Assembly: GCA_027488905.1 (NCBI GenBank)
Contig: JAIYAT010000010.1
Coordinates: 21,061-85,060 of the forward strand
DNA: 64,000 nt
Direction of reading: 5' to 3'
Source: Bacteroidota bacterium
Lineage (GTDB): Bacteria; Bacteroidota; Bacteroidia; UKL13-3
Both the position numbers and the translations under genes were made by a program. Shown here one piece after another: positions 32,516 to 48,969 of this stretch (position 1 is its first letter; each line of letters begins with the position of its first letter). The notes beneath the pieces were generated by a model, which saw nothing but the letters and a program-made list of their open reading frames with translations, was not told the DNA's origin and searched no databases.

Positions 32516-32685
32516 CTATCCTGCAACAAATTTCTTGCGAGCGATTCTCGGCTTTCTTGTTATTTTACTTTCAGGTTTATTCTTCTTATTTCTTAAATAC
32601 TCGCTGATAGAAAACTCTTCCTCTTTTGTTAGTGGACTTAACCCTCCAATTACATCCACATCTAATAATTTTGTTTTAGCTTTCA
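32516..32685 (-). CDS. Small hypothetical cassette ORF (56 aa), followed by attC remnant
   Basis: ATG 32685 to stop 32516; GCCTAAC-agacg-attGGCGG motif immediately downstream on the minus strand (plus coordinates 32463-32509). Confidence 0.2.
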
Positions 32686-32691
32686 TTTTTA

Positions 32692-33215: not shown

Positions 33216-33280
33216 TCACTCCACTAATTTACAAAGTTTTAGCTAAAACTCCAACTTTACTGCAATTCTTATTGTATTGT

Positions 33281-33412
33281 GCCTAACGGTTTGAAGATTT
33301 GCGAATTGGCGGATTTGGAACTTCAACCTGTCGACTTGCAACAAAGGTAAGATTGGAAACGGAACGTACAAGTACCTCTTCAACCCGCCATTTTGCAAAT
33401 GTGCTGTTAGGC
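33281..33412. repeat. attC-like recombination site (family C)
   Basis: GCCTAAC at 33281-33287, GTTAGGC at 33406-33412, paired inner boxes TTTGCGAATTGGCGGATT / AACCCGCCATTTTGCAAA, asymmetric 10/6-nt internal loop. Confidence 0.6.
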
Positions 33413-33487
33413 ACAGTTTTTTGTCTTACTTCTTCAATTATTTTTCGTATTATTTATGTCTATTGAAGTTGAAATTAAGTAAAAAAG

Positions 33488-34261
33488 TCAACCTTTATAA
33501 TTCATCTTATTCCTTACGATGTCTATAAAGCCTTTAAATACTAACACAAAAGGATTATAACCAGCAAAACCTGAGGTCACTCCGTACTTCACCTTTTCTT
33601 TTTCAGATTCGTATGTACCAAAAATTTTATCCCAAATAATTAATGTTCCACCAAAGTTCTTGTCAATATAAATGTCGTTTGATCCGTGGTGTACTCGATG
33701 GTTGGATGGTGTGTCAATAATATTTTCTAAAAACCCCAACTTGCCTACCGCTTCGGTATGTAGGAAAAATTGATACAATAAATTAAAAGAATAGCATAGA
33801 ACTATAAAGTCAAGTGGCAGTCCCAAGAAAGCAAGTGGAATGTAAAACACAGGGCTTATCAAAGCACCCAACCAATTAAGTCTGTAAGAAACAGTGAGGT
33901 TATAAAATTGACTTGAATGATGTACCAAATGAAAAGCCCAAAAAAACTTTACCATATGAGAGCATCTGTGAAACCAATAGTAGCAAAAATCTACACCTAA
34001 AAAAGTAATTAAAAACATAAGTGTCGATTCTTCAAAGGTAAACAACCGAAACTGGTAAAAGAGACCAAAAATCCATAACTGATACCCTGCAAAAAGGAAT
34101 TTGGATAGTTGAAATCCTGCAAAAATACTAAGGTTGGCAAGGGTGTCTTTTACACCATAAGCCTTTTTATCTTTACGCCAACTCCAAATAATTTCGGCTG
34201 CAATTAAACCAAAAATAAAAAGGAGGGCGTACAACTTGTATTGTCCAAATTCAAATTCCAT
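33488..34261 (-). CDS. Sterol desaturase / fatty-acid hydroxylase superfamily membrane enzyme
   Basis: Histidine boxes HRCSH, HLVHH, HRVHHG. Confidence 0.75.
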   Translation of the reverse strand: MEFEFGQYKLYALLFIFGLIAAEIIWSWRKDKKAYGVKDTLANLSIFAGFQLSKFLFAGYQLWIFGLFYQFRLFTFEESTLMFLITFLGVDFCYYWFHRCSHMVKFFWAFHLVHHSSQFYNLTVSYRLNWLGALISPVFYIPLAFLGLPLDFIVLCYSFNLLYQFFLHTEAVGKLGFLENIIDTPSNHRVHHGSNDIYIDKNFGGTLIIWDKIFGTYESEKEKVKYGVTSGFAGYNPFVLVFKGFIDIVRNKMNYKG

Positions 34262-34290
34262 AAGATTACTTTGTTTAGATTATTTTTGCA

Positions 34291-34593
34291 TTAATTGGTT
34301 TTCGTCCAAACTATTTCTTTTTTCATCATTCCTTTTTTTACCACAAATCTGATTTTATTTCCTTCTAAATAGGCTTCACAATTTGCGGATGTGTTTTTCT
34401 TCGGATTGCTCAAAATACCTTGCCACTTGCCATCGGTAAATGTTAAATTATTGAGCACCAACACATCTTTTCCTTGTGGTTTTCCAATAAATGCTAAACC
34501 CGATTTGTTTATTTCAATTATGGCACCTTCGGCAGTTTTCCATTGACCCGTAAAATTGTCAGTAGATTTTTGTGCCATTGCAAATACAGTCAT
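34291..34593 (-). CDS. DUF2147-like small secreted protein (start uncertain)
   Basis: GQWKTAEGAIIEI... pattern; upstream in-frame hydrophobic stretch has no ATG; A16 tract immediately 5'. Confidence 0.4.
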   Translation of the reverse strand: MTVFAMAQKSTDNFTGQWKTAEGAIIEINKSGLAFIGKPQGKDVLVLNNLTFTDGKWQGILSNPKKNTSANCEAYLEGNKIRFVVKKGMMKKEIVWTKTN

Positions 34594-34618
34594 TAATAGA
34601 GCTATAAGAAGCGAAATA

Positions 34619-34634
34619 TTTTTTTTTTTTTTTT
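34619..34634. repeat. Homopolymeric T16 (A16 on coding strand) tract
   Basis: Read directly from sequence at 34619-34634, just upstream of the DUF2147-like ORF. Confidence 0.9.
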
Positions 34635-34714
34635 AAAAATTACATAAATTAATGATGCAAATTTATACTCCCAAAGAGGATAAACTCATTAACAAAAGAT
34701 AATAAAGGTTATGA

Positions 34715-35260
34715 TTAATATTTTTTCTTTGAAATACGTTGTCTAATCCTACTCAAAGAAACAGGTGTAATGCCTAACACATTAGCAATGTACTTGTCGG
34801 GTACACGGTTAATCATATTTGGGTAATCTTTAAGATATTGTTGGTATCTCTTTTCAGGGGAGAGAAAAACAAAGGAATCAATTCTTTGAAAAGCTTGTTT
34901 CAAAATTTGTCGACCAAAAATCCTGCTGTCCATTTTTTGAAAGTCTAAATTGTCAGAACTTAAATCTTGAAAAGTTTTTACATCTGTAAAGTACACTTTT
35001 GTTTTCTCCAAAGTTTCAAAGGTAAACTTGGAAGGTTCATCAAATAAAATGGTATGAACATTTCCAAATAGTTGCTTCTCGGCAAACAACTGAAAAGTAA
35101 TTTCCTCACCTTTGTCATTTATCAAAAAACTACGAACCAACCCTTTTCGGATATAGAAGACATTATTTGTTTTATCGCCTTCTTTTATTATACTCTCTCC
35201 TTTATCAAATGTTTTTGAGTTAAGATTTCGTAATAATTTAAAAAGGAATTTTATGTTCAT
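34715..35260 (-). CDS. Crp/Fnr-family transcriptional regulator (start at MNIKF)
   Basis: cNMP-binding-like N-domain and C-terminal HTH (YIANVLGITPVSLSRIRQRI). Confidence 0.65.
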   Translation of the reverse strand: MNIKFLFKLLRNLNSKTFDKGESIIKEGDKTNNVFYIRKGLVRSFLINDKGEEITFQLFAEKQLFGNVHTILFDEPSKFTFETLEKTKVYFTDVKTFQDLSSDNLDFQKMDSRIFGRQILKQAFQRIDSFVFLSPEKRYQQYLKDYPNMINRVPDKYIANVLGITPVSLSRIRQRISKKKY

Positions 35261-35289
35261 TCGTTTTTTTGTTTCTGCGGTAAAATTGT

Positions 35290-35422
35290 GCCTAACGTTT
35301 TGCGGCTTGGCGTAGTGGCGGATTTTTAGCACTAATGCTCATACGAAGAACTGCACTTGAACCTACCACAAAACTGTCATACGAGGCACAGAACTCGCCA
35401 TTACGCCAAACCGCTGTTAGCC
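35290..35422. repeat. attC-like recombination site (family C)
   Basis: GCCTAAC 35290-35296, GTTAGCC 35416-35422; stems TTGGCGTAGTGGCG / CGCCATTACGCCAA; 10/6 asymmetric loop. Confidence 0.6.
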
Positions 35423-35431
35423 ACAGTTATT

Positions 35432-36349
35432 CTAATTCAAATTTCGGAATTCTGTCGGACTTAATCCTACTTTTTTCCTAAACAAACTACTGAAGTAGTG
35501 TGAGTGTTCAAAGCCCAAGGAATAGGCAATTTCTTTTATAGAGTCATCACTACCTAGCAATCGGTCTTTGGCAATTTCCAGAAGGTGAAAGTGAATATGT
35601 TCTTGAGTGGTTTTTCCTGTTTCTTTACGAAGTAAATCACTTAAATAATTGGGGGAAAGATTAACTTGATCCGCACATTGTAATGCTGTCGGAAGCCCTT
35701 TTTCGGGAAGGTTAGCTGAATCAAAGTAGTTTTTTAAATAAGTATTGATAGTATCAATCACCGAATTATTTTCATTTGCTCTGGTAATAAATTGTCGGTC
35801 ATAAAAACGATTACAGTGATTCAATAAATATTCTATTGCGGATATCAATACGTTCTTGGTGTGCTTGTCGATGGGTCGATTGAGTTCAGTTTCTATTGTA
35901 TTGATGATTGACGAAAGGCACACTTTTTCATCTTCGGACAAATGCAATGCTTCGTTCGTGGTGTATTTAAAGAATGAGTATTCAGTAATTTTGTTAAACA
36001 GAGGAGTACCATAAATCAAATCGGGATGAAAGTATAGACCCCAATTATACCTACACTCTTCGAAAACAGGATTTTGAATGGTACTTACTTGTTCAGGTAA
36101 AGAAAAGAACAAGCTACCTTCCTGAAAATCTATTTGCTTTCTGCCATATTGCAAGCTTCCTGACTTCAGATGTTTTAATGTAATTACATAAAACGATGAA
36201 GCCACTTGTAAACCAGTGTGTTGAGATTCCTTCTGATGGTTATCTAATTTTGAAAAATCAATGACACTCACCAAAGGATGCTTCGGTGGGGGGATTTGAA
36301 ACATGTTATGCAACATGCTAATACTTTCGATCCTGATAATATCCTTCAT
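35432..36349 (-). CDS. AraC-family transcriptional regulator
   Basis: C-terminal double HTH (YLSDLLRKETGKT...IAYSLGFEHSHYFSSLFRKKVGLSPTEFR). Confidence 0.8.
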   Translation of the reverse strand: MKDIIRIESISMLHNMFQIPPPKHPLVSVIDFSKLDNHQKESQHTGLQVASSFYVITLKHLKSGSLQYGRKQIDFQEGSLFFSLPEQVSTIQNPVFEECRYNWGLYFHPDLIYGTPLFNKITEYSFFKYTTNEALHLSEDEKVCLSSIINTIETELNRPIDKHTKNVLISAIEYLLNHCNRFYDRQFITRANENNSVIDTINTYLKNYFDSANLPEKGLPTALQCADQVNLSPNYLSDLLRKETGKTTQEHIHFHLLEIAKDRLLGSDDSIKEIAYSLGFEHSHYFSSLFRKKVGLSPTEFRNLN

Positions 36350-36352
36350 TGT

Positions 36353-36838
36353 TTATAAGTTGGATAGTTTTTCAAAATAAGTGTCTATTGATTTTTTTGA
36401 AACGCTTTCAATAATCAGGTTTCCAACCGAAAATATGACCAATGAAAACAGTATTCCTTTTACCAATTCTTTATCAATAAAGAGATTTATAAGCAATGAA
36501 ACAATGATTAATATAACAAGCACAATTTGAATTTTAGGGTGGTTATTTACCACCTTTGCCATTCGTTCCTTTTCTTTTTGATGAAACGTTGCCGAACTTT
36601 CCTTGTATAACAAGGTTTGATTTTTTAGTAATTTTTCTTCTGTCATTTTATACCCAATGCCACTAACAGATGAGAATAATCCAAATATAATCAAACCAAT
36701 TTTCAATCCAATTAATACTGCATTCGACCCGGAAAAATGAATCAGGACAGCCAAAAGTAGCATTATAAAACCCAAAGCCAACATATAGTTGGCAATTGTT
36801 TTTTGGGCGTTAATGTATATTTCCAATTGTTCAAGCAT
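36353..36838 (-). CDS. Hypothetical membrane protein
   Basis: Four hydrophobic segments; no family. Confidence 0.4.
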   Translation of the reverse strand: MLEQLEIYINAQKTIANYMLALGFIMLLLAVLIHFSGSNAVLIGLKIGLIIFGLFSSVSGIGYKMTEEKLLKNQTLLYKESSATFHQKEKERMAKVVNNHPKIQIVLVILIIVSLLINLFIDKELVKGILFSLVIFSVGNLIIESVSKKSIDTYFEKLSNL

Positions 36839-36876
36839 AATTTATTTTTTTAATTTTCGAAGACTGCTGTCCATTC

Positions 36877-37707
36877 TTATTTTATGGATGCGCCCGGCAA
36901 AATTTGGTCTATCAAACCATAACCAAACCATCTTTTCATAAACTTACCCAATTTGCCATCAGCGTTAGGTGCGTATCTTCTTTTTGGAGAACCGCTCTTA
37001 GCTGCATGTAATACGGCTTTTGCAATCGTGTCAGACGAAGCTCCATTTTGGCAACCTTTACTCCAATTTTTCCTGAAATTTTTCATCTGCTCCTTATACG
37101 GTCCGGCATTGGGGTGTTTTTCACACTTATCCAAGTAGGGCAAACTGGCAGTGGGAATATCAGTATTGATGTAGCCCGGCTCGATGAGTGACACTTTAAT
37201 ACCAAATTCTTTGACTTCCATACGTAATCCATCCCCGACACCCTGCTGTGCATGCTTGGTAGCGGGATACCATGCCATACCGGGAGAGCCCATATGCCCC
37301 GCAACTGAGGAAGTAATGATGATTCTACCCGATTTTTGTTTTCTCATGTGGGGTAGCACAGCGGTAAATGCCCGGGCATTGCCTAACACATTGACATCAA
37401 ATTGGTATCTGACATCTTCAATGCTTTGCAACTCTACCGGACCCAAGAGGCAAAACCCGGCATTGGCGAAAAGCACATCGATTCTACCATCATCCTTGAT
37501 AATGGTATCAACTACCTTCTGAATGTCTTCATCCTTTGTTACATCACAAGGCATAACTACTGCTCCCAACACTTCTAAATCTTTCATTAAATGAGTTCTT
37601 CTTGCGGTGGCATATACCTTGAAACCGTTTGCTAATAACATCTTTGCAGATGCGTGACCAATACCGGTTGAAGCTCCAGTAATAAATGCGATTTTTTTAT
37701 TTTCCAT
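36877..37707 (-). CDS. SDR-family short-chain dehydrogenase/reductase
   Basis: TGASTGIG Rossmann motif, catalytic YxxxK (YPATKHA). Confidence 0.85.
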   Translation of the reverse strand: MENKKIAFITGASTGIGHASAKMLLANGFKVYATARRTHLMKDLEVLGAVVMPCDVTKDEDIQKVVDTIIKDDGRIDVLFANAGFCLLGPVELQSIEDVRYQFDVNVLGNARAFTAVLPHMRKQKSGRIIITSSVAGHMGSPGMAWYPATKHAQQGVGDGLRMEVKEFGIKVSLIEPGYINTDIPTASLPYLDKCEKHPNAGPYKEQMKNFRKNWSKGCQNGASSDTIAKAVLHAAKSGSPKRRYAPNADGKLGKFMKRWFGYGLIDQILPGASIK

Positions 37708-37850
37708 TATCTTATCTTTTTTGACGTTTAATAATGGTGCAAATTTAAAATGTCAACCTGTATTACAGATTACACAAATCTCGGATAAGCATTCATTTTT
37801 CTTAGATTGTCTAATAGAGTCTGGTTATTGCGGGTCGCTTTCATAATTGT

Positions 37851-38024
37851 GGCTAACGTTTCGGCGCTTGGCGCAGTAAGGGAATGGTTAGCACAAATTT
37901 TGCCAAGGCACTTTACTCCAAAAATAAACTTTTCTGCCTTTTCTTTTTCCTTTTATTCTAATGCCCTTATTTCGCCAAACGCATTTTATAAGCCGTTTTT
38001 CTTTTCCTTAAAACAGGTGTTAAT
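37851..38024. repeat. attC-like site (family A, long variant with conserved ~100-bp internal segment)
   Basis: Left GGCTAACGTTTCGGCGCTTGGCGCAGTAAGG; internal ccaaaaataaacttttctgcc...ttttattc...gcccttatt; right ...gccaaacgc...; four similar copies in the array. Confidence 0.45.
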
Positions 38025-38538
38025 CAATTTTTTTCAAGCTGTCATTTCCATAATAGTTTTTCTCCCACTCAGAAATATCAACTTTTTCAATTTCTTTTTG
38101 CCTTTTTTTTTCATAATCATTTGCATTAATAACCCCAAATAGAATCCAAAATGTCGTCCCGCCTAAAAGCAAAAAAAGTCGTTGATTAAATTTCTTTTGA
38201 TAGTTCTCCTTTTTAAGTTCACTTAATGAAAGACCAACTGTCCACTGTCTTGCTAGAATAAATGGAGCCATAAGAAAAATATAAATCATTTTTTCTATTG
38301 TATAGCTTTCGGTCTCGTTTTGTTCTAATTTTTTTTGATAAGCTAATTCTAATTTTTCAGCTTTCTTTTTCCATCTGTCTAAAGTCTTATCTTGGTCGTA
38401 TCGGGTAACTTTCCGTTTGTTTAGTTCGTCCTTTGCTTGGTCTATTGCGTCTTGTTGCCAATCATCAATTGTTCCATTTGCAATTGCAATTAGTTCTTCA
38501 GTGTCACGCCTTGAAATTGGTGGATTAAACTCTATCAC
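38020..38538 (-). CDS. Hypothetical membrane protein (cassette ORF)
   Basis: ORF with two central TM helices. Confidence 0.35.
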   Translation of the reverse strand: MIEFNPPISRRDTEELIAIANGTIDDWQQDAIDQAKDELNKRKVTRYDQDKTLDRWKKKAEKLELAYQKKLEQNETESYTIEKMIYIFLMAPFILARQWTVGLSLSELKKENYQKKFNQRLFLLLGGTTFWILFGVINANDYEKKRQKEIEKVDISEWEKNYYGNDSLKKID

Positions 38539-38570
38539 TATGGTATCTTTTAAAATAGCTTAAAACGTTT

Positions 38571-38692
38571 GCCAGCTACGAGAAGTTGGAGCCTGTCAGC
38601 ACAAATATAGTTGCCCAGAACCAATTTCAATTAACCACAAATGTGTCAGCGTAGCGCTGAACCGCCAATTTGTTGTTGGTGCTGTTTTAGGC
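38571..38692. repeat. attC-like site (family C2; left arm degenerate)
   Basis: Right arm aaccacaaatgtgtcagcgtagcgctgaaccgccaatttg...GTTTTAGGC nearly identical to the 43290 copy. Confidence 0.4.
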
Positions 38693-38725
38693 TGTTATTT
38701 TTCATGAAATCATTTGGTCATGTTA

Positions 38726-39238
38726 CTAAATATAATGTACCGATATTCCTTTTGCACTAGATAATTGTCTTAAAATTGTATAAAGTTTATTTTTCTCAAA
38801 ATCGTTGTGGAGATAGATATTCATTTGGTAAGTTTCATTTTTAGAATCGATTATTGAAATCACATTCTTTCTGCCGCTATTAAAAGCACCTAGAACTATT
38901 AGAGTGGAGTTGTTTTCACCAAAGCAACCATCAAAGTGAAAGATTATTTGTTTTGGTTTTATTGTTTTTTTTATATGTGTTAATGTTTCAATTTCAATTT
39001 CATCACTATAAAGATTAATCTGTCCAGTTTTATGTTTGTCCTGAAAAAAAAATCTTAAGAATTTAAGTAATATTATGATAACGAATGTAAATGGACCTAA
39101 AACATAAAAATATTTTTCAACCAAATTTAAATGAAATGATAATAAAATTAGTCCAATACTAAAAAAGCCGATACTAAAAGACCAAATGTTATACTTTATG
39201 TCCTTAGGATTTACGATGTCAAATGTTGCTTTATACAT
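38726..39238 (-). CDS. Hypothetical membrane protein (cassette ORF)
   Basis: ORF, N-terminal TM helices. Confidence 0.35.
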   Translation of the reverse strand: MYKATFDIVNPKDIKYNIWSFSIGFFSIGLILLSFHLNLVEKYFYVLGPFTFVIIILLKFLRFFFQDKHKTGQINLYSDEIEIETLTHIKKTIKPKQIIFHFDGCFGENNSTLIVLGAFNSGRKNVISIIDSKNETYQMNIYLHNDFEKNKLYTILRQLSSAKGISVHYI

Positions 39239-39242
39239 AATA

Positions 39243-39388
39243 GCCTATAACGTTTATACGCTTGGCGCAGTAAAGGAATCGTTGGCTCTTTTTCTCCTCA
39301 ATATGTTACTCCAAAAATAAACTTTTCTGCCGTTTCTTTTCCCTTAAAATCCTCAAGCCGTTATTGCATCCAAACGCGTGTTAGCGGC
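39243..39388. repeat. attC-like site (family A)
   Basis: GCCTATAACgtttatacgcTTGGCGCAGTAAAGG ... CCAAACGCGTGTTAGCGGC; arms pair with 10/6 loop. Confidence 0.5.
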
Positions 39389-39407
39389 TGCTCCTTTTGC
39401 TCAGTGG

Positions 39408-40079
39408 CTATAAGTACATTTTCAAATTTTCGTTTTCATCTGTCTGATACAATTCATTAAGTAATACTTTCATCTGGTCATTATTTTTGAAGTTGTTGCC
39501 TGTAAATTGTTTAATTCTATTTATTACTTCTTCTGAATCCCATGATGCAATATTACTAGCAAATCTTACTACCATCCCATTGCAGCGCATATCAATTGTT
39601 CCACCCTCGGTGACGTATTGAAGTTGTTGTTCTGTAACCCCCAAACCTGTAATGTCAACAGTTCCGTTATCTAAGGGGTGTTTTGTGTAATTATTTTGAC
39701 TGGCAATTTCTAAACTCGAGACTTCGGATATTGAGAATGATTTTGTCTTAATTGATCCAAATTGTTTGTTAATAATAGTAATCTGGTCTTTCGATATTTC
39801 AAGTGATTCCCTATTCAATACTTTCTTTAGATATTCTCTACCAGCAAGTACATATACCACGCATAATGCAATAATTATTATGGCAGCAATGGGAATGTCT
39901 GCAATTAACCTTATTGTAACACTAGTAAGAAATAGTGCGGTAGCGATTAATAATACTCCTTGGAAAATTAGACCAAACTTTATGATTGGACTTACTGATG
40001 GATAAATCTCTATTTTTAGTTTGTCTTTACTTTCAGTAAACTTTAGGGTTTCTTTCATTTTTGATTTAGTAGTGGGCAT
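39408..40079 (-). CDS. Hypothetical membrane protein (cassette ORF; start at MPTTK, ORF track gives 40139)
   Basis: ORF with two TM helices; trimmed so as not to run into the attC-like site. Confidence 0.35.
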   Translation of the reverse strand: MPTTKSKMKETLKFTESKDKLKIEIYPSVSPIIKFGLIFQGVLLIATALFLTSVTIRLIADIPIAAIIIIALCVVYVLAGREYLKKVLNRESLEISKDQITIINKQFGSIKTKSFSISEVSSLEIASQNNYTKHPLDNGTVDITGLGVTEQQLQYVTEGGTIDMRCNGMVVRFASNIASWDSEEVINRIKQFTGNNFKNNDQMKVLLNELYQTDENENLKMYL

Positions 40080-40111
40080 AAACAATGGTTGCACATGGAG
40101 TTGCAGATATC

Positions 40112-40233
40112 GTTTGACAGCTAATCGCAGATGGCCCAATTGCGGACCATTCTTCGTGATAGCAGCTTATCAAATATAGAAAAATTTCGCCTAAGAACAA
40201 CTAGGGCCATTTGTATTTAGGTGATGTTATGCC
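40112..40233. repeat. attC-like site (family B, left end truncated)
   Basis: ...AGCTAATCGCAGATGGCCCAATTGCGGACC ... GGGCCATTTGTATTTAGGTGATGTTATGCC; near-identical to copy at 41599. Confidence 0.4.
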
Positions 40234-40243
40234 TAGTTAATTT

Positions 40244-40915
40244 TTAAAGAATCATTGGTGCCATATTGAAATTTGTGTCTAATTTTTTATTTCCAATGGA
40301 GTCAAACATTTGGAATTTCCCGTTTAATAATGAACCGCCACCTACTTTATTATTATAATAAGGTTTCTTATACAATTTCCAGTTTTCTATAGTATTAATT
40401 TTCCCATTTTTAAAGTAACTTTTAAGGACACCTGATGGCAACCCCGTATTGTAATTATTCAACCGAATATATGTGCCCTCAAACCAAATATTTCCGTTCT
40501 CATATGGTACTTTTACATAGACACTATCCTCGTATATAATGATACCTTTCAGAGCAAATGCTTTAGTATAGTATGGATGAGTGTTGTTAAAATATTCTGG
40601 AATAACTGACCATTGTATCTTGCCATTTTTAAAAAGAGCTAATGAAACTAATTTGTTCTTTTGTGAGAAATGGAATATTTTGGAAATACTATCTAGCTCA
40701 TTGTCTTTATAAAATACTTCTCTGATTTCATTATTTAAAGAGTCATTTATTTTCCATAATCCTTGTTTTAATCCTTTTTCATCTATAAAGTTAATTTCAG
40801 TCTTTATTTTAATATTACTTATTGAATCGGCAATTGGAATTTGTTGATTTTTAGCGTCCTTTCCTTGGTTAAAACAAGAGGAAATGAATAATATTATTAT
40901 GTAATGAAATTTCAT
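40244..40915 (-). CDS. Lipoprotein with MORN-variant (YwqK-like) repeats
   Basis: Lipobox SSC; repeated ...KNGKI...G.W..Y..NG units. Confidence 0.45.
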   Translation of the reverse strand: MKFHYIIILFISSCFNQGKDAKNQQIPIADSISNIKIKTEINFIDEKGLKQGLWKINDSLNNEIREVFYKDNELDSISKIFHFSQKNKLVSLALFKNGKIQWSVIPEYFNNTHPYYTKAFALKGIIIYEDSVYVKVPYENGNIWFEGTYIRLNNYNTGLPSGVLKSYFKNGKINTIENWKLYKKPYYNNKVGGGSLLNGKFQMFDSIGNKKLDTNFNMAPMIL

Positions 40916-40924
40916 CTTATAAAT

Positions 40925-41080
40925 TGGGCATTACGCTGTTTGTGTTCTTGGCGCAGTAAGGGAATGGTTACCACAAATTCGCTCAAGCACTTTACCCCAA
41001 AAATAAACTTTTCTGCCGTTACTTTTTCCTTTTATTCCAATGCCCTTATTGTGTCAAACGTGTCTTATGTGCTGTTATTT
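40925..41080. repeat. attC-like site (family A)
   Basis: gggcattacgctgtttgtgttcTTGGCGCAGTAAGG ... internal conserved block ... gtcaaacgtgtcttatgtgctgtt. Confidence 0.45.
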
Positions 41081-41578
41081 TTGCATGATTACATTTCTTT
41101 CTAGCTCTTTAAATAATGTCCACATATTTGTGACTTTGTTATAAAAGAACTTAGTTACTCGAACGTCCATTAAGGCTTGAGTTTGAAACAAAAAGTCCGA
41201 ATAAATGTCTTCTCTCCATTGAACAATATCTCCACTAATTATGACTTCTATTGTGTCGGTTTTTAGTACTTTGCGATAAATATTGTAAATGTATCTGCCG
41301 CTGTCCGCATTGTCTCCTTGGCATATGGCTTGTCTTGGTGTCTGATGTGCAATGAACCTAAAATGGTTTTGCCCGACTTTTCCATTTAGTAAAGTGGAAT
41401 CCAAGTCTGTCCGCATAATAATATAGCCATACCTCTTTTGGTCTTGATGGATAGATGAGTCAGAAAAATATTTTCTAATTGTCATATTATAAAGTCTTGA
41501 CAAATCTTTTTCAGTAGGCTTTTGACCAAAAGAAATTGTTGCCAACAAGATTGCTAGAATTAACATAAATTTAGGCAT
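41075..41578 (-). CDS. Hypothetical secreted protein (cassette ORF)
   Basis: Signal peptide MPKFMLILAILLATISFG. Confidence 0.35.
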   Translation of the reverse strand: MPKFMLILAILLATISFGQKPTEKDLSRLYNMTIRKYFSDSSIHQDQKRYGYIIMRTDLDSTLLNGKVGQNHFRFIAHQTPRQAICQGDNADSGRYIYNIYRKVLKTDTIEVIISGDIVQWREDIYSDFLFQTQALMDVRVTKFFYNKVTNMWTLFKELERNVIMQK

Positions 41579-41598
41579 ATTTTGTCGTCATTATAATA

Positions 41599-41732
41599 GC
41601 CACTAACGTTTAATTGCTAACCGCAGATGGCCCAATTGCGGACCATTCTTCATGATAGCAGCTTATCAAATATAGAAAATTATTCATAGCGAACAACCGA
41701 AGGGCCATTTGCGGTTAGGTGTTGTTAGCGGC
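41599..41732. repeat. attC-like site (family B, complete)
   Basis: GCCACTAACgtttaattGCTAACCGCAGATGGCC ... GGCCATTTGCGGTTAGGtgttGTTAGCGGC, clear inverted arms. Confidence 0.5.
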
Positions 41733-41780
41733 TGTTTTTTCTTTATTCCGAAGGTGTGTTGTTGAATGCACACACATAGT

Positions 41781-42368
41781 TTATTCAATGTTTGATAAAT
41801 CTAAATAATCTCCGCTGTCATGCCCTATGGCTACAAATAATTTCTCATTGCTTGTCAAAAAGAGTTTCCTGTTGAGTTTCGTTCTGATAATTTCATCAAA
41901 TGTCAACGAACAATAAGCTAGCGGTAAAATCCAGTCGAGGAATTCATAATTGTCTTTGTCAGTTCTTGCTATGTCTTCAATTTGTTGTAGCAAAGTTGGC
42001 TGAGCATAACTATTCTCTGGAACATAAATTGGGTCTAAAGCCCAATCTAAATCATCCTTTTCATACTTGTCCGCACCTGCTAAATAAATTGTTGGAATTT
42101 CTTTTTCATTATCCTCAAATTTTATAATACCTATCCAAAGCGCAACAACACTGCTTGGAAGCGGCGAGATTGTTACAAGATTTTGAAGCCATTCAAGAAT
42201 ATCTGCTTGTTCTTTGTCAATATCTAAATTTCGCAAGGCAGTCCAGTAAGGTTTAGGATTTGTGCTTTCGTGATTGTCAATAAAACTATTCCAAGCATCT
42301 TTTGCAGTTAGTTTTGCAGCGAAAATCGATGTCAAGCTATCCCAAGATTTGTCATGTTGAAATTCCAT
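41781..42368 (-). CDS. Hypothetical cytoplasmic protein (cassette ORF)
   Basis: ORF only. Confidence 0.35.
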   Translation of the reverse strand: MEFQHDKSWDSLTSIFAAKLTAKDAWNSFIDNHESTNPKPYWTALRNLDIDKEQADILEWLQNLVTISPLPSSVVALWIGIIKFEDNEKEIPTIYLAGADKYEKDDLDWALDPIYVPENSYAQPTLLQQIEDIARTDKDNYEFLDWILPLAYCSLTFDEIIRTKLNRKLFLTSNEKLFVAIGHDSGDYLDLSNIE

Positions 42369-42418
42369 ATCAGTTTTTTTCTGCTATCAGTTTAATGTTT
42401 GCACGATGATCCTATAAT

Positions 42419-42565
42419 AGCCGCCAATGTTTGTGTTCTTGGCGCAGTAAGGGAATGATTAGCACAAATTTCGCTCTTGCGCTTTAAGCCAAAAATAAAC
42501 TTTTCTGCCTTTTCTTTTTCCTTTTATTCTTAAGCCCTTATTGCCGCCAAACGCGTGTCGGCAGT
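42419..42565. repeat. attC-like site (family A)
   Basis: tagccgccaatgtttgtgttcTTGGCGCAGTAAGG ... gccgccaaacgcgtgtcggcag. Confidence 0.45.
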
Positions 42566-42573
42566 AGTGCTTA

Positions 42574-42993
42574 TTAGTCGGGTTTATTATTTTCCCAATA
42601 TTCTTTTGGTGTTACAATTTTGGTCTTTTTATAGGTCGAAAATGTAAAGTCATTTGTATTTCCAGTAATAACAAAGTTGGCTATGCTTTCGTCAGCAAGT
42701 TCCAAAATTTTATTATCATCAACATCAGAAATCAAGTCAAGTTTTATTCTCGGATGAAATTTAGTTGCCCTACTTTCAATATCCACAAGAAGAGATTCTG
42801 CCCGTATAAAAAAGTCTTGAAATTTCGCAAACTTTGGTCGAGCTAACACCTCATAATACTCGGCCATTAATTCTTCAGAAATACATAGTTGGAACTTGTT
42901 CTCCAGAAAAAGGTCGTTAATAATCTGGTTTGGATAACTTTTTTGAATTAAAGCTGAAACAATAACATTCGTGTCAATTACGATTTTTTGCAT
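42574..42993 (-). CDS. vapC: PIN-domain toxin (VapC-like)
   Basis: N-terminal IVIDTNVIVSAL with acidic residues spaced as in PIN domains; 139 aa. Confidence 0.7.
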   Translation of the reverse strand: MQKIVIDTNVIVSALIQKSYPNQIINDLFLENKFQLCISEELMAEYYEVLARPKFAKFQDFFIRAESLLVDIESRATKFHPRIKLDLISDVDDNKILELADESIANFVITGNTNDFTFSTYKKTKIVTPKEYWENNKPD

Positions 42994-43225
42994 TATGTCT
43001 AACAGCTTTTACTTCATTTGTTATTTCGTCAATATCCATATTAGAAAGACCATATTTTTCAGCGAGCTGAATGCATTTGTTTAGATTTTGACGAGTCAAT
43101 TCTTTACTCACAAGGTCGATAAAGTCTGTAAAATTTAGGTTGTCGTTTTTAATGCCGAATTTACTATACTCAAGGTCGGATATTGAAATATTCAAGGTTC
43201 TCATTTTTTTTATATCTATATTCAA
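42974..43225 (-). CDS. Putative antitoxin partner of the PIN toxin
   Basis: 83-aa ORF overlapping the PIN gene start by 20 nt. Confidence 0.45.
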   Translation of the reverse strand: MNIDIKKMRTLNISISDLEYSKFGIKNDNLNFTDFIDLVSKELTRQNLNKCIQLAEKYGLSNMDIDEITNEVKAVRHNAKNRN

Positions 43226-43289
43226 AAATAAGAAAAAATATTTGGGTTTAAGAAGGTCTTATTTTTTTGCAAATTTAAATAGCATTACT

Positions 43290-43419
43290 GCCAACGTTTT
43301 CGGGCTTGGCGAAGGTGGCGATTTTCACCACAAATGTTGATGCGGAAAACCAAACTTTGATTAACCACAAATGTGTCTGCGGAGCACTGAACCGCCACTT
43401 TTGCCAAACCCGTGTTACC
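43290..43419. repeat. attC-like site (family C2)
   Basis: GCCAACgttttcgggcTTGGCGAAGGTGGCG ... CGCCACTTTTGCCAAacccgtGTTACCT; 10/6 loop. Confidence 0.5.
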
Positions 43420-43429
43420 TGCTGCCCTT

Positions 43430-44248
43430 TTAGTTTTCATTCGTTATAAGTGAAAATTTTCCGTTGTTTAGTAAGGTCTTGATGTTGTCTAAAATTTGGT
43501 TGGGTGCGTAATAGTTTGGATGACTTTGAAAAATAGCAGCGTCATTCATTATAGCTTCTATTTCTTGTTTTGTCTGCTCTACTTGTCCCTTGTCGGCAAA
43601 TTTAAGGGAATTGGGTTTGAACCAATCCACTTCAATACAATAGTTGATTTGCTTTGAACAACGACAAGGATTTTTGGGGTCATAAATACCACATTGTTTT
43701 GCCATAAAAGCCCTTATTTGTTGTCGTGCTAAGGAAAGTCTTTTTCTGAACGTTGTTGGTTCAATGTCAAGAATGTATGCCCCTTCATTACTGTCAAACT
43801 CCAAGATTTCTCCAACCAAATATGCCAAACGTAACGTTCTCGACACACAAATTAGCATACTAGTACTACAAGCAATTTTTACTTCTTCTTCCAATAAGTT
43901 TGCATCGGCTTTTTCGTAGGCTGGGTAAGTTGCACCAACTTTAAGATGGTACTCGCCTTCTTCAAAGGTGAGGTTTTCAATTTCGGTTCTTTTCATATTC
44001 AGCAAATAGTTAGTTGCTACCCTATACACCCAGGTGGTAAAGCTACTTTCACCTTTGAATTTGGAAAGGTTGGTCAACACCTTCAAAAGAATTTCTTGTG
44101 TAGCATCTTCCGCATCCATCGGATTCCAGAGGTAACGAACAGATAAATTGTATACATTTCGCTGAATGCACCTTATCAGTATTTCAATGGATTTTTTATC
44201 ACCATTCAGGCAATTCTCTATGAGTTCTATGTAGTTTATTTTTTCCAT
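43430..44248 (-). CDS. Sigma-70-family (ECF-like) sigma factor with ~90-aa Cys-containing C-terminal extension
   Basis: Region 2 (DAEDATQEILLKVLTNLSKFKGESSFTTWVYRVATNYLLN), region 4 HTH, then CGIYDPKNPCRCSKQINYC extension. Confidence 0.65.
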   Translation of the reverse strand: MEKINYIELIENCLNGDKKSIEILIRCIQRNVYNLSVRYLWNPMDAEDATQEILLKVLTNLSKFKGESSFTTWVYRVATNYLLNMKRTEIENLTFEEGEYHLKVGATYPAYEKADANLLEEEVKIACSTSMLICVSRTLRLAYLVGEILEFDSNEGAYILDIEPTTFRKRLSLARQQIRAFMAKQCGIYDPKNPCRCSKQINYCIEVDWFKPNSLKFADKGQVEQTKQEIEAIMNDAAIFQSHPNYYAPNQILDNIKTLLNNGKFSLITNEN

Positions 44249-44278
44249 TCTCCGAACCAGTACTTATTAAATACAAAA

Positions 44279-44629
44279 CTAAGTAGCATAATAGAATTTT
44301 TCTTTCACTATCAAACCATTTTCCCAATGTCTTACTGCTACTTCAGGATAAATAATTTTTTCGCTCTGCTCATTGGTATAATCAAAAAGGACTTCCTGAA
44401 TGCTCAGATTTTCACCATACGCCACGCTTAAAACTTTGAGTTTTAAGTCGGGAAATGCCTCTACAAAACCACCACACTGTTCACGATTGAAGTATTTGCC
44501 CACTCGTGGTTCGGTTTCGTTTTCCTGCATCGTTATATTTTCAGCATAGAAAAGCTCAAATGCTTCCATTGCTTTACCTTGCTCAATCATTGTGTTGAGC
44601 TGCTCATTGTTGTGTTTAAAATTACTCAT
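44279..44629 (-). CDS. NTF2/SnoaL-like small protein
   Basis: 116 aa, composition and C-terminal W..G.I.KE.FYY pattern typical of SnoaL-like folds. Confidence 0.4.
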   Translation of the reverse strand: MSNFKHNNEQLNTMIEQGKAMEAFELFYAENITMQENETEPRVGKYFNREQCGGFVEAFPDLKLKVLSVAYGENLSIQEVLFDYTNEQSEKIIYPEVAVRHWENGLIVKEKFYYAT

Positions 44630-44649
44630 TTTTTAAAATTTCGATGTGA

Positions 44650-45300
44650 TTAATTAAAAGTTTTTCGCAGAAATAAACCAGCATTCGGGTTGAATGTTGT
44701 TTCCAATTCATTGCTAACAGGGTTTCTAAATGTCGGTATTTGCGTGTCGCACCCAATGCCAAACTGAAATCCTTTATGCTCAAGTCCGAGCCTTATTTGC
44801 TGAAAACTGAAGTTGTGTTGCTGGAAATTAAAGTTAGTGCTAAAAGTGAGTTGAGAAAAGAATTTCAGTTTTTTAGTCAATTTAGGGTTATACACTAAAA
44901 GTCCAAACATTTCGTAGTTTGGTTTATTGGTCAATTCAATGGTCGGGAAAACATTAAGGTACAAGTCTCCTTTTTCATTGAAGTATTGCAAAGAAATTGC
45001 TGCAATTGGAACAAAGCCTTGATTTGTCATATACCCCCCCGTTGCAACACCAACGTATTGATTAAAATTAAACGTTGCAACAGAGTAAATAAATGGGTCA
45101 ACTGTTGACCTATCCTTGTAGTCAACAGTAAAATAAGTCAGGTTAAAAAAGCTGACGATACCAAGAGAGTCAATGGGTTTAGAAATAAGGATTTCGTGTT
45201 GAGCCTTTTTGTGTCCGCCAAAGACTTCGCCATAAATGATTTGTGCTTGCAAGGTCTGGCTTAGAAATGCCAAAATGAGAATTAAGAAAATTTGCTTCAT
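44650..45300 (-). CDS. Hypothetical outer-membrane beta-barrel protein (start at MKQIF; ORF track gives 45492)
   Basis: Signal peptide then beta-rich sequence ending in F. Confidence 0.4.
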   Translation of the reverse strand: MKQIFLILILAFLSQTLQAQIIYGEVFGGHKKAQHEILISKPIDSLGIVSFFNLTYFTVDYKDRSTVDPFIYSVATFNFNQYVGVATGGYMTNQGFVPIAAISLQYFNEKGDLYLNVFPTIELTNKPNYEMFGLLVYNPKLTKKLKFFSQLTFSTNFNFQQHNFSFQQIRLGLEHKGFQFGIGCDTQIPTFRNPVSNELETTFNPNAGLFLRKTFN

Positions 45301-45519
45301 ACTTGTCTGAATAAACTGTTTTGTCCATTTGACACAATTCAACCTACAAGTGTGAAGTGAAATTTGAAATTTTTTTGAGGTTTGTCGTTTAGGGTTGCAG
45401 GTAACTCTTTTACTTGCGAAGCAAAATACTAAATTAAGGTTAATTATTGTGAAATTGCCGATGGAAATTATCGTTTTATTGAAAGTTAGCAATTGATTAA
45501 TTTAGGTTCAGAAAGGCTC

Positions 45520-45756
45520 CTAACTCTCCAATACACCCGCACTCACACCCACACTCTTGCTCACACTCACACTCTTGCTTTTCACTCTTTCTCTTCCCTC
45601 TTTCTCTTCCCTCTTTTTCTTCCCTCTTGCTCCATACTGCTTATGTACCCCGCAATCAGTTTGGAGTGTGAGTCTTGAGCAAGAGTTTACGCACTTAATG
45701 AGAGTCTTCCAAAGCACTCTTTCTCCTCCCTCTTGCTCCATACTGCTTAGGTACCC
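45520..45756. repeat. Polypyrimidine (CT / CA-CT) low-complexity tract with ~45-bp internal direct repeat
   Basis: cactcacacccacactcttgctcacactcacactc... ctctttctcttccct units; ctcttgctccatactgctta(t/g)gtacccc occurs twice. Confidence 0.8.
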
Positions 45757-45758
45757 CC

Positions 45759-46022
45759 TTGGATTATCGTGATTACCCCCTTGGATTAACATGGACACCC
45801 GCTTGGATTAACATGGTTACCCCCTTGGATTAACATGGTTACCCCCTTGGATTAACATGGGTACCCGCTTGGATTAACATAGGTACCCGCTTGGATTAAC
45901 ATGGGTACCTGCTTGGATTAACATGGGTACCCCCTTGGATTAACATGGGTACCTGCTTGGATTAACATAGGTACCCGCTTGGAGCATCGTGGGTACCCCC
46001 TTGGTGTAACATATATAAGAAG
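45759..46022. repeat. 22-bp tandem direct repeat, ~12 copies (consensus TTGGATTAACATGGGTACCCSC), iteron-like
   Basis: Units begin at 45759, 45781, 45803 ... 46001 with exact 22-bp phasing; terminal copies degenerate. Confidence 0.9.
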
Positions 46023-46065
46023 GGGAAGCATAAAGTAGATTGTGTAAACTTGTGTAAGATTTGGT

Positions 46066-46100
46066 ACAAAAAAAGTCATCCCCGAAACTGGAGATGACTT
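46066..46100 (-). terminator. Rho-independent terminator for the 46126..46962 gene
   Basis: AAGTCATCCCC / GGAGATGACTT stem (one mismatch) with 6-nt loop, followed on the minus strand by a T7 run. Confidence 0.5.
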
Positions 46101-46125
46101 GCTAAGGGTTGATAACTAAGCTTAT

Positions 46126-46962
46126 TTATAAGCCGATTTTACTGAAAAATTTAAATGGTATTACCTGATGATGTTCTGAACTGGTTCTGCCAAATGTACC
46201 ACGGATATTTGCTTTCACTTGGCGGCCTAATATGATGATTCCGTTTTCTTCATTATAAAATAGTACATCGCGTTTGTGACGCGCATAGGTTAGGGTATTC
46301 TCTAAAGCATTTACCTCATCATTTATCTGCTCCAATTTTAACTGATAGGCTTTTAGGGCTGCTATCTCGAGTTCGCTTTGGTTGGGTTTATAATTGGGTA
46401 TCATTTCTAGAAACTCAATAAACTGCAAAAAGTCTTCTGCTCTTTTTTCTAAGGTAAGATAGGCTCCTATGTGTTTGCTTGGTTTAGACTCACCTGTTTC
46501 AGCGGGTGCCGATTGCTTTTTGTTATAGCCCTTAATTTGTTTAACCACCAAGTATAGGTCATGGTAAAGGCTTTTGTCTACCCCCTGCGATTGCAGCATG
46601 TCTAGTATCCTACTGAGCATCTGGTTTTGGTCCTTGAATAGGTTCAACCTACGCGTAGTGGCATTTAAATAATCCGTTTCTGCATCACTTACCTTTTTAA
46701 TGGCCATTCGACTCTGTGAAAGGAAGTCTTCCAGAGTGGCTAGGCTTAGGTTGGGGTTAGAAGGGTTGTAGGCGGTACCGAATTTCTTCACTACATCAAT
46801 CAAACCAGAGAAATTGTTCATTTTAGCTGTAAAGCTAGATAGATTGTGCTTGTTCATATTTTTATGTATTAATAATGACACTGCAAGTATTGACATAAAA
46901 GGCTGAACAGTAAAGGCTAAATAGTTTGATATTACGCAGATACAAGCTATGTTCTTGCGCAA
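46126..46962 (-). CDS. Hypothetical protein adjacent to the 22-bp repeat array (start uncertain)
   Basis: ORF only; no tyrosine-recombinase or Rep motifs recognised. Confidence 0.4.
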   Translation of the reverse strand: MRKNIACICVISNYLAFTVQPFMSILAVSLLIHKNMNKHNLSSFTAKMNNFSGLIDVVKKFGTAYNPSNPNLSLATLEDFLSQSRMAIKKVSDAETDYLNATTRRLNLFKDQNQMLSRILDMLQSQGVDKSLYHDLYLVVKQIKGYNKKQSAPAETGESKPSKHIGAYLTLEKRAEDFLQFIEFLEMIPNYKPNQSELEIAALKAYQLKLEQINDEVNALENTLTYARHKRDVLFYNEENGIIILGRQVKANIRGTFGRTSSEHHQVIPFKFFSKIGL

Positions 46963-47145
46963 ATTGCATATGCAAGGACAATATCCTAGGCAAACACCCT
47001 TTCATTTGCATATTTCGCAAATAAACCAGCACTTAATTTGCACTACACCCAAATGGAAAGTAATTTTTTTACACCAAATGCAATTTTATTTTGGGCAAAT
47101 TGGGGAGTTGAAGCAGACCATGGTCCATCGACAATGGTCCATGGT

Positions 47146-47685
47146 CTACTCCAACTCCCTTTTCTCAGCTGCCCTTTTTATTTCAAACAAACCTTCCTCA
47201 AAACCAGCCTCAGTTGATTTAATCTTGGAAGGGAGCATAAACCTAAAAATTGGGTTATAACCCACATCGCCAGAATCTACCCAAATTAGGTGCGTTTTAT
47301 TGGCCACAGGCTTAAAGTAAAAAGTAGCTTCGGAATGCATGGTGCCTTCATTGATGCTTAAATCATAATGAATCATTTCATTTTGTTGGCTCTTAGTTAT
47401 TTTAAACCTTCCAATCCCTACTAGGCCACCTCTAAAATACTGGGCCGCCCCTTGGCCGCTCTTCACTTTGCTATAAAAGCTAACCATAGAACTGTCTAGT
47501 TGGGTATTCCACGGACTCCAATCGGCCCAATTGCGAATGCTGTTCATGTAGGCATAAGTTTCATATACAGGCTTGTTAATAACCGTGCTGCGCTCTATAC
47601 GGTAGGTTTTAGGAAAAAGCAAGGAAACCAAAAACACCAATCCAACTAATCCTAAGATGGCCGCAAATATTCCAAATAATTTCAT
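47146..47685 (-). CDS. SRPBCC-superfamily (polyketide-cyclase-like) protein with N-terminal anchor
   Basis: N-terminal TM helix plus SRPBCC-like length and pattern. Confidence 0.5.
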   Translation of the reverse strand: MKLFGIFAAILGLVGLVFLVSLLFPKTYRIERSTVINKPVYETYAYMNSIRNWADWSPWNTQLDSSMVSFYSKVKSGQGAAQYFRGGLVGIGRFKITKSQQNEMIHYDLSINEGTMHSEATFYFKPVANKTHLIWVDSGDVGYNPIFRFMLPSKIKSTEAGFEEGLFEIKRAAEKRELE

Positions 47686-47845
47686 TTTGTATTAATTCTA
47701 ACTGGCGACGAAATTACATAAATCATTCAGATTTGAGTTCATCGCTTTTTTTAGTAGTTTCGTCTACAAATGTTTTGTAAACAGCCTCAGGCAGTTTAAC
47801 ATTGTATGGGTGATGGTACCTTTGACCTAAGATAATAATATAAAA

Positions 47846-48583: not shown

Positions 48584-48603
48584 TTATATAAACCAAGGCC
48601 TAT

Positions 48604-48969
48604 ATGAAGTTATTTCTAGCAAAAATCATCTATAAGATCGTAAAACCCTTTGAGGAAGGGTTTGAGCAATTTGATGAACAACTTTGTTTTGTAAATGCCC
48701 GCGATTTACATGAAGCCTTTTTTAAGGCCAGGATGTTAGGTGTTAAAAATGAAGATGAGGTAAAGCACGAAAGTGGTTCTTCCATCCTTTGGAAATTCAT
48801 TGATGTTCCCTTTCTCAAAGAAATTACCTCTTTCGAAGACGGCTTAGAGTTACATTCTGCAGTTCTAGAGAAAGAGGCCTCAGAGTTTTATGAAAAGTTT
48901 ATAAAGGCAAGGGCCTCAGAGTTGCAATCCTCAATAGAATTAGGCTTGCAACCTTTATTGTCGTCGTGA
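48604..48969 (+). CDS. Hypothetical protein
   Basis: ORF only. Confidence 0.35.
   Translation: MKLFLAKIIYKIVKPFEEGFEQFDEQLCFVNARDLHEAFFKARMLGVKNEDEVKHESGSSILWKFIDVPFLKEITSFEDGLELHSAVLEKEASEFYEKFIKARASELQSSIELGLQPLLSS

Follow-up and report, generated by a model that had tools for sequence, protein, structure and literature searches.

The DNA considered here, a stretch of 64,000 nucleotides from a member of the Bacteroidota (positions 21,061 to 85,060 of contig JAIYAT010000010.1; hereafter the window), has about 36% G+C and carries genes typical of that phylum, such as a LytTR two-component pair, an extracytoplasmic function (ECF) sigma factor and sucA. The subject of this report is a tandem array of 12 head-to-tail units of 22 bp (45750..46012, no strand assigned), together with the gene beside it on the minus strand, here termed p278 (46126..46857), and an integron-type cassette array that lies on the other side. 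Between gene and repeats stands the intrinsic terminator of p278 (46073..46100, minus strand), which has an 11-bp stem and a T-run on the minus strand only, and which is kept in the Bacteroidota relatives. An initial annotation of the sequence had described 12 units of 22 bp at 45759-46022, between the terminator of a 278-amino-acid gene and the first cassette; Tandem Repeats Finder (TRF) confirms the same array in another register, and the placement was correct.

In the TRF output the array at 45750-46012 has a period of 22, 12.0 copies, 86% matches, 0% indels and a score of 358, with the consensus GGTACCCCCTTGGATTAACATG; the phasing by two helical turns that had been noticed earlier is thus real. 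The units are of the core type GTACCC(C/G)CTTGGATTAACATGG, and the array is likewise recovered by pattern search, by stacking of the units and by autocorrelation (z=22 at lag 22). When up to three mismatches are allowed, the pattern TTGGATTAACATGGGTACC has nine phased copies in the array and zero elsewhere in the 64 kb, against a chance expectation of 0.02, and 0 of 100 shuffles gave nine; this is the only copy of the element within the window. The nine central units have at most two mismatches to that pattern, the first unit and the last two are degenerate, and the palindrome GGGTACCC is present in every unit. Window units are nearly identical, with at most about five variable positions. A coding repeat was considered and rejected, and the array is taken to be non-coding, because each unit contains TAA and a period of 22 is not a multiple of 3. 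Sigma-70 promoter matches inside the array (TTAACA-17-TAACAT, eight times) were also disregarded as a by-product of the repetition, the consensus of Bacteroidota being different.

The open reading frame (ORF) listed for the adjacent gene (278 amino acids, minus strand, 46126-46962) begins at an upstream TTG; homologues place the real start at MNKHN, which gives a protein of 243 amino acids. Basic and all-alpha, this protein is built of two halves that are homologous to each other and carry a YNPxN loop each, and it has no match in Pfam, NCBIfam, PHROGs or PADLOC. AlphaFold2 models built from 11 sequences (pLDDT 84) and from 64 sequences (pLDDT 89, pTM 0.79) both predict an elongated all-alpha bundle of two modules with no beta wing. 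Foldseek searches returned nothing below E 0.08 against PDB, with no Rep in the top 50, and nothing below E 0.04 against PDB and BFVD; the best geometric match of the model is the helical bimodular sensor domain of McpS/PilJ, at a TM of about 0.5, and a profile search against PDB sequences gave coiled-coil noise only. No similarity of p278 to Rep, ParB, ribbon-helix-helix (RHH), winged-helix, helix-turn-helix, Nop or ToxN-like proteins was found, and the Pfam Nop model had no match in 13 family members even at E<=10. The Rep, ParB or winged-helix fold that the initial annotation proposed to look for in the neighbouring protein was not seen; what was modelled, with good confidence, is a helical bundle. 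In profile searches the family comprises 2,382 clusters (50% identity) at E<=1e-3 and 529 at E<=1e-30; its members have about 240 amino acids, a median pI of 9.3 (248 members) and no names, and some are labelled by NCBI as Pyrinomonadaceae (Acidobacteriota).

The central observation is that genes of this family are accompanied by phased arrays. A 21- or 22-bp-period array lies downstream of the gene in all 11 p278-family loci that have at least 220 bp of 3' flank (loci are designated by L and a number). Six of these are close, namely the window, L010, L002, L016, L017 and L018 (76-98% amino acid identity, period 22), and five are distant, namely L024, L025, L026/27, L028 and L029 (25-35% identity, period 21 with a 42-bp super-period). 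The protein of L026/27 is labelled by NCBI as Pyrinomonadaceae, Acidobacteriota, and L028 and L029 are IMG/VR contigs. The arrays have 7-15 units, and the gap between stop codon and array is 55-190 bp in 10 of the 11 loci, the periodicity of the five distant ones beginning 55-128 bp past the stop codon; the exception is L018, with a gap of 942 bp that holds an array of 87-bp repeats. Three close homologues of p278, at 76-82% identity, are found in neighbourhoods quite unlike one another, L016 near an insertion sequence (IS) element, L017 near RhuM, and L018 near a giant adhesin and a type I restriction-modification (R-M) system. Each keeps the 22-bp period, but the units have drifted in sequence; they are GTACCCCCTCCGTACAACATGT (12.4 copies), GTACCTGCTTGGTATCAAATGG (7.1 copies) and CACCATTTGTGTACCCCCTTCA (14.9 copies), respectively, and these three arrays have an orientation relative to the gene that is opposite to that in the window group.

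Among the distant loci, periodicity was scored at lags of 21 and 42. L024 has degenerate units (z 7.9 and 5.5, respectively); L025 has alternating 21-bp A and B units (9.2 and 11.5); L026/27 has 14 units with a CCCGGGTG.. core (8.0 and 12.7); L028 has an ATAGTAT..GTGCAC core (7.7 and 9.2); and L029 has the core AAAGTAAAT (11.9 and 10.8). Unit sequences are unrelated among these members, and each has a conserved core of 7-9 nt with looser positions around it. The open frames that run across 21-bp arrays such as that of L029 are compositional. As a control, every 250-bp window of 267,651 bases (the window plus the loci) was scanned for a 21/22-bp periodicity, and there were zero matches other than the gene-linked arrays and those solo copies which a search with the repeat pattern had brought in. 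No other neighbouring gene is conserved, the flanks being made up of tRNAs, IS elements, RhuM, a type I R-M system, a giant adhesin or an integron. The proposal that the adjacent gene is the partner of the array is thus backed by comparative genomics, in that a 21/22-bp array follows every family member examined.

Two further observations concern the surroundings of these genes. A family of tandem repeats with an 87-bp unit (..GGTGGCTGAGCTTAGTCGAAGCC..; up to 7.6 copies) occurs between p278 homologues and 22-bp arrays (L018 8343-9007, L013 11180-11740, L019 and L020), and L013 also carries the heptamer satellites AACTTAA (nine copies) and AACCCAA (ten copies). Synteny between the window and L002 stops about 100 bp upstream of p278, beyond which L002 has two tRNA genes (6895-7099), while the window (47074-47159) has an SRPBCC gene together with an inverted repeat of 26 nt (47103-47159), so that p278 and its array stand in different chromosomal contexts in related genomes.

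Since the gene-array pair is conserved and its period and placement are kept while the sequence of the repeat is replaced, the simplest explanation is a cognate binding platform. We give about an even chance to the reading that p278-family genes have a phased direct-repeat array as their companion, of which the array in the window, cognate to p278, is the local form. The protein would recognise the conserved core of each unit, presumably as DNA rather than RNA; a period of 21 or 22 bp corresponds to two turns of B-DNA and would set successive sites on one face of the helix, and 7-15 protein units might then assemble side by side into a nucleoprotein complex just downstream of their own gene. 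In the Bacteroidota clade the array is packaged as a bounded element and has spread in at least one genome in the manner of BrickBuilt, one of the miniature inverted-repeat transposable elements (MITEs). Arrays could thereby escape their own gene, and MITE-like packaging and dispersal are compatible with this proposal.

The element in the window spans about 45685-46050 and consists of a left motif, a CT-rich leader, the repeats and a tail, with 9-bp inverted ends (AGTTTACAC/GTGTAAACT). On the plus strand, the left end motif is GTTTACGCACTTAATGAGAG (45685..45704), whose outer 9 bp, (A)GTTTACNCAC, correspond to the right end as its inverted complement; the leader is CTCTTTCTCCTCCCTCTTGCTCCATACTGCTTAGGTACCCC (45717..45757), which passes straight into the first unit and is kept ahead of the array in all related copies; and the right end, or tail motif, is TAGATTGTGTAAAC(T) (46036..46050), an inverted repeat of the left end that is kept in L001, L002, L004, L006, L008, L010 and L017. 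The terminal inverted repeats read (A)GTTTACAC on the left and GTGTAAAC(T) on the right, and the flanks diverge just outside them. Leader, array and tail follow one order and polarity in the window, L001, L002, L004, L006, L008 and L010; the set of parts is complete in the window, L001, L002, L004, L008 and L010, and other copies lack one end or lie at a contig edge. The left motif (A)GTTTACACACTTAATGRGAC occurs one to three times per copy, the leader of true copies ends in ..CTCTTGCTCCATACTGYTTRGGTACCCCC, and the tail ends in TAGAYTGTGTAAAC(T).

The DNA ahead of the array is itself repetitive. The initial annotation was right about a low-complexity tract and a duplication, the duplicated unit being of 41 nt and not of 45 (45611-45651 and 45717-45757, 93% identical). 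The tract (45533..45651, plus strand) is first CA-rich (45533-45579, CACACCCACACTC..) and then CT-rich, with a polypyrimidine, mirror-like 13-bp period repeated 4.7 times (45572-45632, CTCTTTCTCTTCC), and at its end stands a second, orphan copy of the leader (45611-45651). Tracts similar to 45533-45632 precede the arrays in L007, L017 and L025, and the CA-rich/polypyrimidine tract may form triplex DNA or belong to the leader. A 60-nt unit next to the orphan leader (45654-45713) is triplicated in L002. In L003 a second leader and one more unit follow the main array (4795-4860); this and the orphan leader in the window indicate that leader-plus-array blocks are duplicated as higher-order units.

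How far the element has spread was judged by scanning GTDB representative genomes for the unit, which gave true arrays in two metagenome-assembled genomes (MAGs). Bacteroidetes MAG H1_MAG_00011 has two loci (L002 and L007), and MAG MsE-30jul19-124 has at least five (L001, L003, L004, L006 and L008), beside coaE, rpsP/rimM, an aconitase gene and a glyoxalase gene; three of the MsE copies are at contig ends, as is expected for repeated DNA. L005 (a Pseudomonas MAG) and L009 (the only metagenome match) were set aside as single chance units, not arrays. Unit numbers among the copies range from 4 to 14. The contig L010, from a metagenome, matches the window at 95-97% identity over 45840-52718 and carries the same gene, terminator, tail and leader: it has 8 units against 12 in the window (the L002 orthologue has 11), its terminal units are kept while the interior ones are rearranged, and synteny with the window stops exactly at the outer edge of the left motif. 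Its varying unit number makes the array a fast-evolving variable number tandem repeat (VNTR); in at least one genome it is also an element dispersed in multiple copies. The number of units probably shifts quickly by slippage or unequal exchange, and the loss of synteny at the element would fit repeated DNA acting as a substrate for recombination. A dispersed satellite and a freely varying VNTR were the two patterns that the initial annotation regarded as speaking against a functional array, and each is seen in part, as a related genome has at least five copies and two strains differ in copy number (12 versus 8 units). In the MsE MAG a further repeat that is itself dispersed (GTGAAAATCTGTGGCATCTGTGAGA..GGGTGGCTYACAGATAKCACAGATAA) adjoins the element's tail in three copies (L001 1000-1105, L006 160-260, L008 6000-6110), and the left flanks of L001 and L008 are near-identical over about 180 bp, up to a terminator at their end; the extra repeat and the common flank suggest that in this genome the element may move as part of a larger repeated unit.

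These properties are also those expected of an array that is purely selfish or neutral, that is, a BrickBuilt-type MITE with a minisatellite, mobilised by a transposase acting in trans on the 9-bp ends, expanded by slippage and having no protein partner, in which case an insertion hotspot or common descent would account for its place beside p278. The architecture is that of BrickBuilt (leader, spacer-less repeats of about 22-23 nt, tail and short inverted ends), the five or more copies beside housekeeping genes in one MAG are what such an element would produce, and so are the range of unit numbers, the turnover of interior units with retention of the edges, and the break in sister-strain synteny at the end of the element. 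We nevertheless consider this explanation rather unlikely. It leaves unaccounted for the fact that distant p278-family genes are followed, at the same distance, by unrelated 21-bp arrays of their own, with a periodicity that appears nowhere else in 268 kb. Furthermore, no target-site duplication is visible outside the ends of the element, and no IS or transposase with matching ends was found in the locus DNA examined.

An action of the array as RNA, with transcription from the leader and then either cleavage into 21/22-nt units or use as a multi-site sponge for p278, by analogy with the ToxI repeats of type III toxin-antitoxin systems or with TIGR arrays and Tas proteins, is improbable in our judgement, although several features would suit it. 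A single protein gene is joined to an array of 7-15 units in surroundings that are often variable or rich in defence genes (the type I R-M system in L018, RhuM in L017, a methylase and GAPS4 in L025, and in the window an integron with toxin-antitoxin cassettes); the leader is always ahead of the array, in one polarity, with a T-run after the tail in several copies; and in L028 and L029 the conserved 7-9-nt core alternates with variable positions. TIGR arrays, too, lie upstream or downstream of a gene for a small all-alpha protein and have escaped repeat finders (PMC12045711; bioRxiv 10.64898/2026.09.09.750476). However, p278 has neither a Nop domain nor a ToxN-like fold, the near-identity of the units in the window leaves no guide-like spacers, and a promoter of the Bacteroidota type could not be identified by eye in the leader. 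Folding of the array as RNA is no more stable than that of shuffles on either strand (z -1.6 and -0.3), and a hairpin in each unit (GGTAC-N7-GTACC), judged by eye, is possible in some variants but broken in the dominant GGATT variant of the window. Rfam at the gathering threshold gave tRNAs in two loci and nothing else in the window and seven loci, and an Rfam search by E-value of 45300-46200 gave noise only. A period of two helical turns, the flip in orientation between groups of loci and the lack of excess folding together favour a role as DNA over one as RNA.

The proposal that the array is a binding platform cognate to p278 must itself be set against several facts. The predicted fold offers no precedent for the proposed binding, and no recognised DNA- or RNA-binding motif was found in the elongated bundle. 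A strong terminator separates the gene from the array. The five distant members were sampled from about 2,400 clusters, in addition to the six close ones, and the association within the close clade could come in part from descent of the locus from a common ancestor. By tblastn, L002 is the only one of the first eight loci with a p278 gene beside the array, and the MsE MAG, with its five or more arrays by housekeeping genes, has no p278 in the DNA examined, which means that an array can persist and spread without a gene linked in cis. The contigs of L013-L015 (78% identity) end in other satellites ahead of any 22-bp array, and in L022, where p278 is truncated by an IS110 element, the array is absent. 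Finally, MITE-like packaging and dispersal are equally the main support for a selfish element. With regard to L022 (10358-12799), an IS110-family transposase gene is inserted in the p278 orthologue, of which the 3' half has been removed.

The initial annotation had offered two functions for the array, as a relic replication or partition origin of an integrated element, or as a regulatory array controlling the cassettes, and neither has fared well. The first, in which a protein of the Rep or ParB type would bind iterons or a centromere from a plasmid or phage that had integrated, has in its favour a direct-repeat phasing of about 21-22 bp (here a period of 22 in 12.0 copies) and an adjacent gene. 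The region 45600-46110 had no blastn match in 72,556 plasmids and 50,697 phages, tblastn gave none for p278, P0060 and P0184 against the plasmids and for P0060 against the phages, and among viral contigs (IMG/VR) there were 0 matches to the unit pattern and also 0 to the protein of the close clade. The protein family is absent from both the plasmid and the phage collections, which makes the module a chromosomal one. A DnaA box (TTATCCACA-like, with up to one mismatch) is missing from 44500-47000, and the repeats have no AT-rich unwinding tract beside them; the AT fraction of the array is 0.48-0.56, compared with about 0.64 genome-wide, so that the array is richer in GC than the genome. In addition to the missing winged-helix, ParB or RHH fold, no ParA/ParM/TubZ-like NTPase gene accompanies p278 in the annotated loci. 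No support was thus found for a relic plasmid or phage origin or partition site, and such a reading, together with that of cassette control, is very improbable.

Control of cassette expression would draw on the position of the array, which is upstream of the attI-like site of a genuine cassette array. Ten attC-type sites of about 140 nt each lie on the minus strand (33276..43426), each after a minus-strand ORF, and were delimited with a covariance model built from eight of them; they lie at 33276, 35285, 37846, 38555, 39240, 40100, 40930, 41596, 42417 and 43284. Their ends read ..GCTAAC.. and ..AAACGTTAGC.., compensatory changes are seen in 11 of the 13 pairs of the consensus stem, and the same model matches further sites in related loci; the cassette array is therefore a real one of the integron type. 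An attI-like segment at its head (45405..45514, minus strand) is 94% identical to L007. Identity between the window and L007 extends up to ..AAAGAGTTA.., and the two diverge just past the GTTA of ..AAAAGAGTTACC.. (minus strand, about 45400-45405), from which we infer that the crossover would fall at G|TT, about 45404/45405. The repeat element is nonetheless separable from the integron, since neither attI nor attC accompanies the gene and array of L010, where a terminator and an unrelated convergent gene lie beyond the left motif. The arrays of L016 and L017 are likewise without convincing attC sites, L022 has cassettes and no repeat element, and in L002 an integrase gene lies between array and cassettes. 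The idea that the array regulates cassette expression is therefore unlikely.

As regards the integrase, no such gene was found in the 64-kb window. L002 carries on the minus strand (4080-4972) a tyrosine recombinase split into two ORFs in cassette orientation, between the element and an attI-like site (..AGAGAATAGTTACCTGCAAG), with a SAM-like N-terminal domain in one half and a Phage_integrase C-terminal domain (E 4e-26) in the other; this gene of a Bacteroidota MAG may be an integron integrase that has decayed. With these two halves as queries, tblastn gave no integrase in the window or the other loci. In the region of L022 given above (10358-12799), the place immediately before the first attC, in which one would look for an integrase, is taken by a 401-amino-acid protein with a C-terminal HNH domain. 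The first cassette of the window (43430 to about 45400) has genes for an outer-membrane-protein-like product, a SnoaL-like protein and an ECF sigma factor, and another (42574-43225) pairs a PIN-domain toxin of 139 amino acids with an overlapping upstream VapB-like ORF of 83 amino acids, a combination characteristic of sedentary chromosomal integrons. The variable island of the window, as judged by comparison with L022, extends over about 29870-46634. Apart from these features, tandem repeats of 15 and 30 bp (TTTTTAGCAACTACT, 4.5 copies) are found at 25679-25778, in or near the ORFs 25300-25881 and 25852-26607.

A broader proposal may be built on the pairing of gene and array. Tentatively, the p278 family and its phased arrays could form an undescribed and widespread two-component system with a novel all-alpha nucleic-acid-binding fold, arrays of which escape as MITE-like satellites. 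It is conceivable, with somewhat less than even confidence, that this fold polymerises on array DNA or is loaded with RNA units derived from the array, in Bacteroidota, Acidobacteriota and other lineages. BrickBuilt-type elements might then be orphaned arrays of such systems. Should the link between gene and array be functional, it would point to an origin for minisatellite-bearing MITEs such as BrickBuilt and would provide a first handle on a large family that is unannotated in Pfam, NCBIfam, PHROGs and PADLOC, and a new fold would join the proteins that work with a tandem array of their own (Rep with iterons, ParR with parC, ToxN with ToxI, and Tas with TIGR). Placed at the head of a chromosomal integron, the array is also the exact point where synteny between close strains is lost, and assemblies break there too, so that it is relevant to the building, and to the mis-assembly, of variable islands.

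Several known systems combine some of these properties. R6K has seven 22-bp iterons, P1 carries incA downstream of repA, and iteron control loci downstream of rep are also found in F. The arrays described here resemble plasmid iterons in being direct repeats spaced by about two helical turns, several to about a dozen in number, beside the gene of the presumed binder, and in having units with a conserved core and looser positions; they differ in that the protein is not a winged-helix Rep, in having no DnaA box or AT-rich element, and in being chromosomal and present in more than one lineage. Type III toxin-antitoxin systems (ToxIN) have repeats of 34-45 nt, in 2-5.5 copies, upstream of the toxin gene, and their toxins are alpha/beta endoribonucleases. 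Common to both are one protein gene, a spacer-less array, a terminator between them and frequent mobile or defence contexts, but here the array is downstream in all loci and in either orientation, and the protein is all-alpha with no PADLOC or Pfam match. Repetitive extragenic palindromic (REP) elements and bacterial interspersed mosaic elements (BIMEs) are linked to genes for REP-associated tyrosine transposases (RAYTs). In both cases a dispersed short repeat co-varies in sequence with one protein gene flanked by repeats; REPs, however, are single palindromes rather than phased arrays, and RAYTs are HUH nucleases, unlike p278, which has no nuclease-like fold. Classes of REP are described in PMC3733652.

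In TIGR-Tas systems, Tas has a Nop domain, and the arrays have 36-nt units with two variable spacers of 8-9 nt and edge and loop repeats (Faure et al. 2025, PMC12045711). The likeness lies in a gene for a compact all-alpha protein joined to an array of 5-15 units, in a sequence that differs by locus with a geometry that is kept, and in a two-part super-period (made of edge and loop repeats in TIGR arrays and of A and B units of 21 bp in alternation here); on the other hand, a Nop domain was not detected in p278, and units here are of 21-22 nt and almost invariant in the window. The closest counterpart in print is BrickBuilt of Porphyromonas gingivalis, which has spacer-less 23-nt repeats, a leader, a tail and short inverted ends, with 19 intergenic copies of 1-22.8 units (Klein et al. 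2015, Mob DNA 6:18; PMC4596501), and the ends of which, GAGACCTTTGCA, match elements of the IS5 family (PMC4596501). Both are elements of Bacteroidota with spacer-less repeats (22 nt here versus 23), conserved and variable positions, leader and tail, and terminal inverted repeats, and both are intergenic and multi-copy within a genome, with unit numbers that vary among copies and strains (4-14 here). By published description and end motifs, on which the comparison is made, the ends differ (AGTTTACAC here, with no known parent), and BrickBuilt has no reported link to a protein family, whereas here a p278-family gene lies beside an array in every lineage examined. What is new, therefore, is the association of a BrickBuilt-like, iteron-like phased array with a large orphan protein family.

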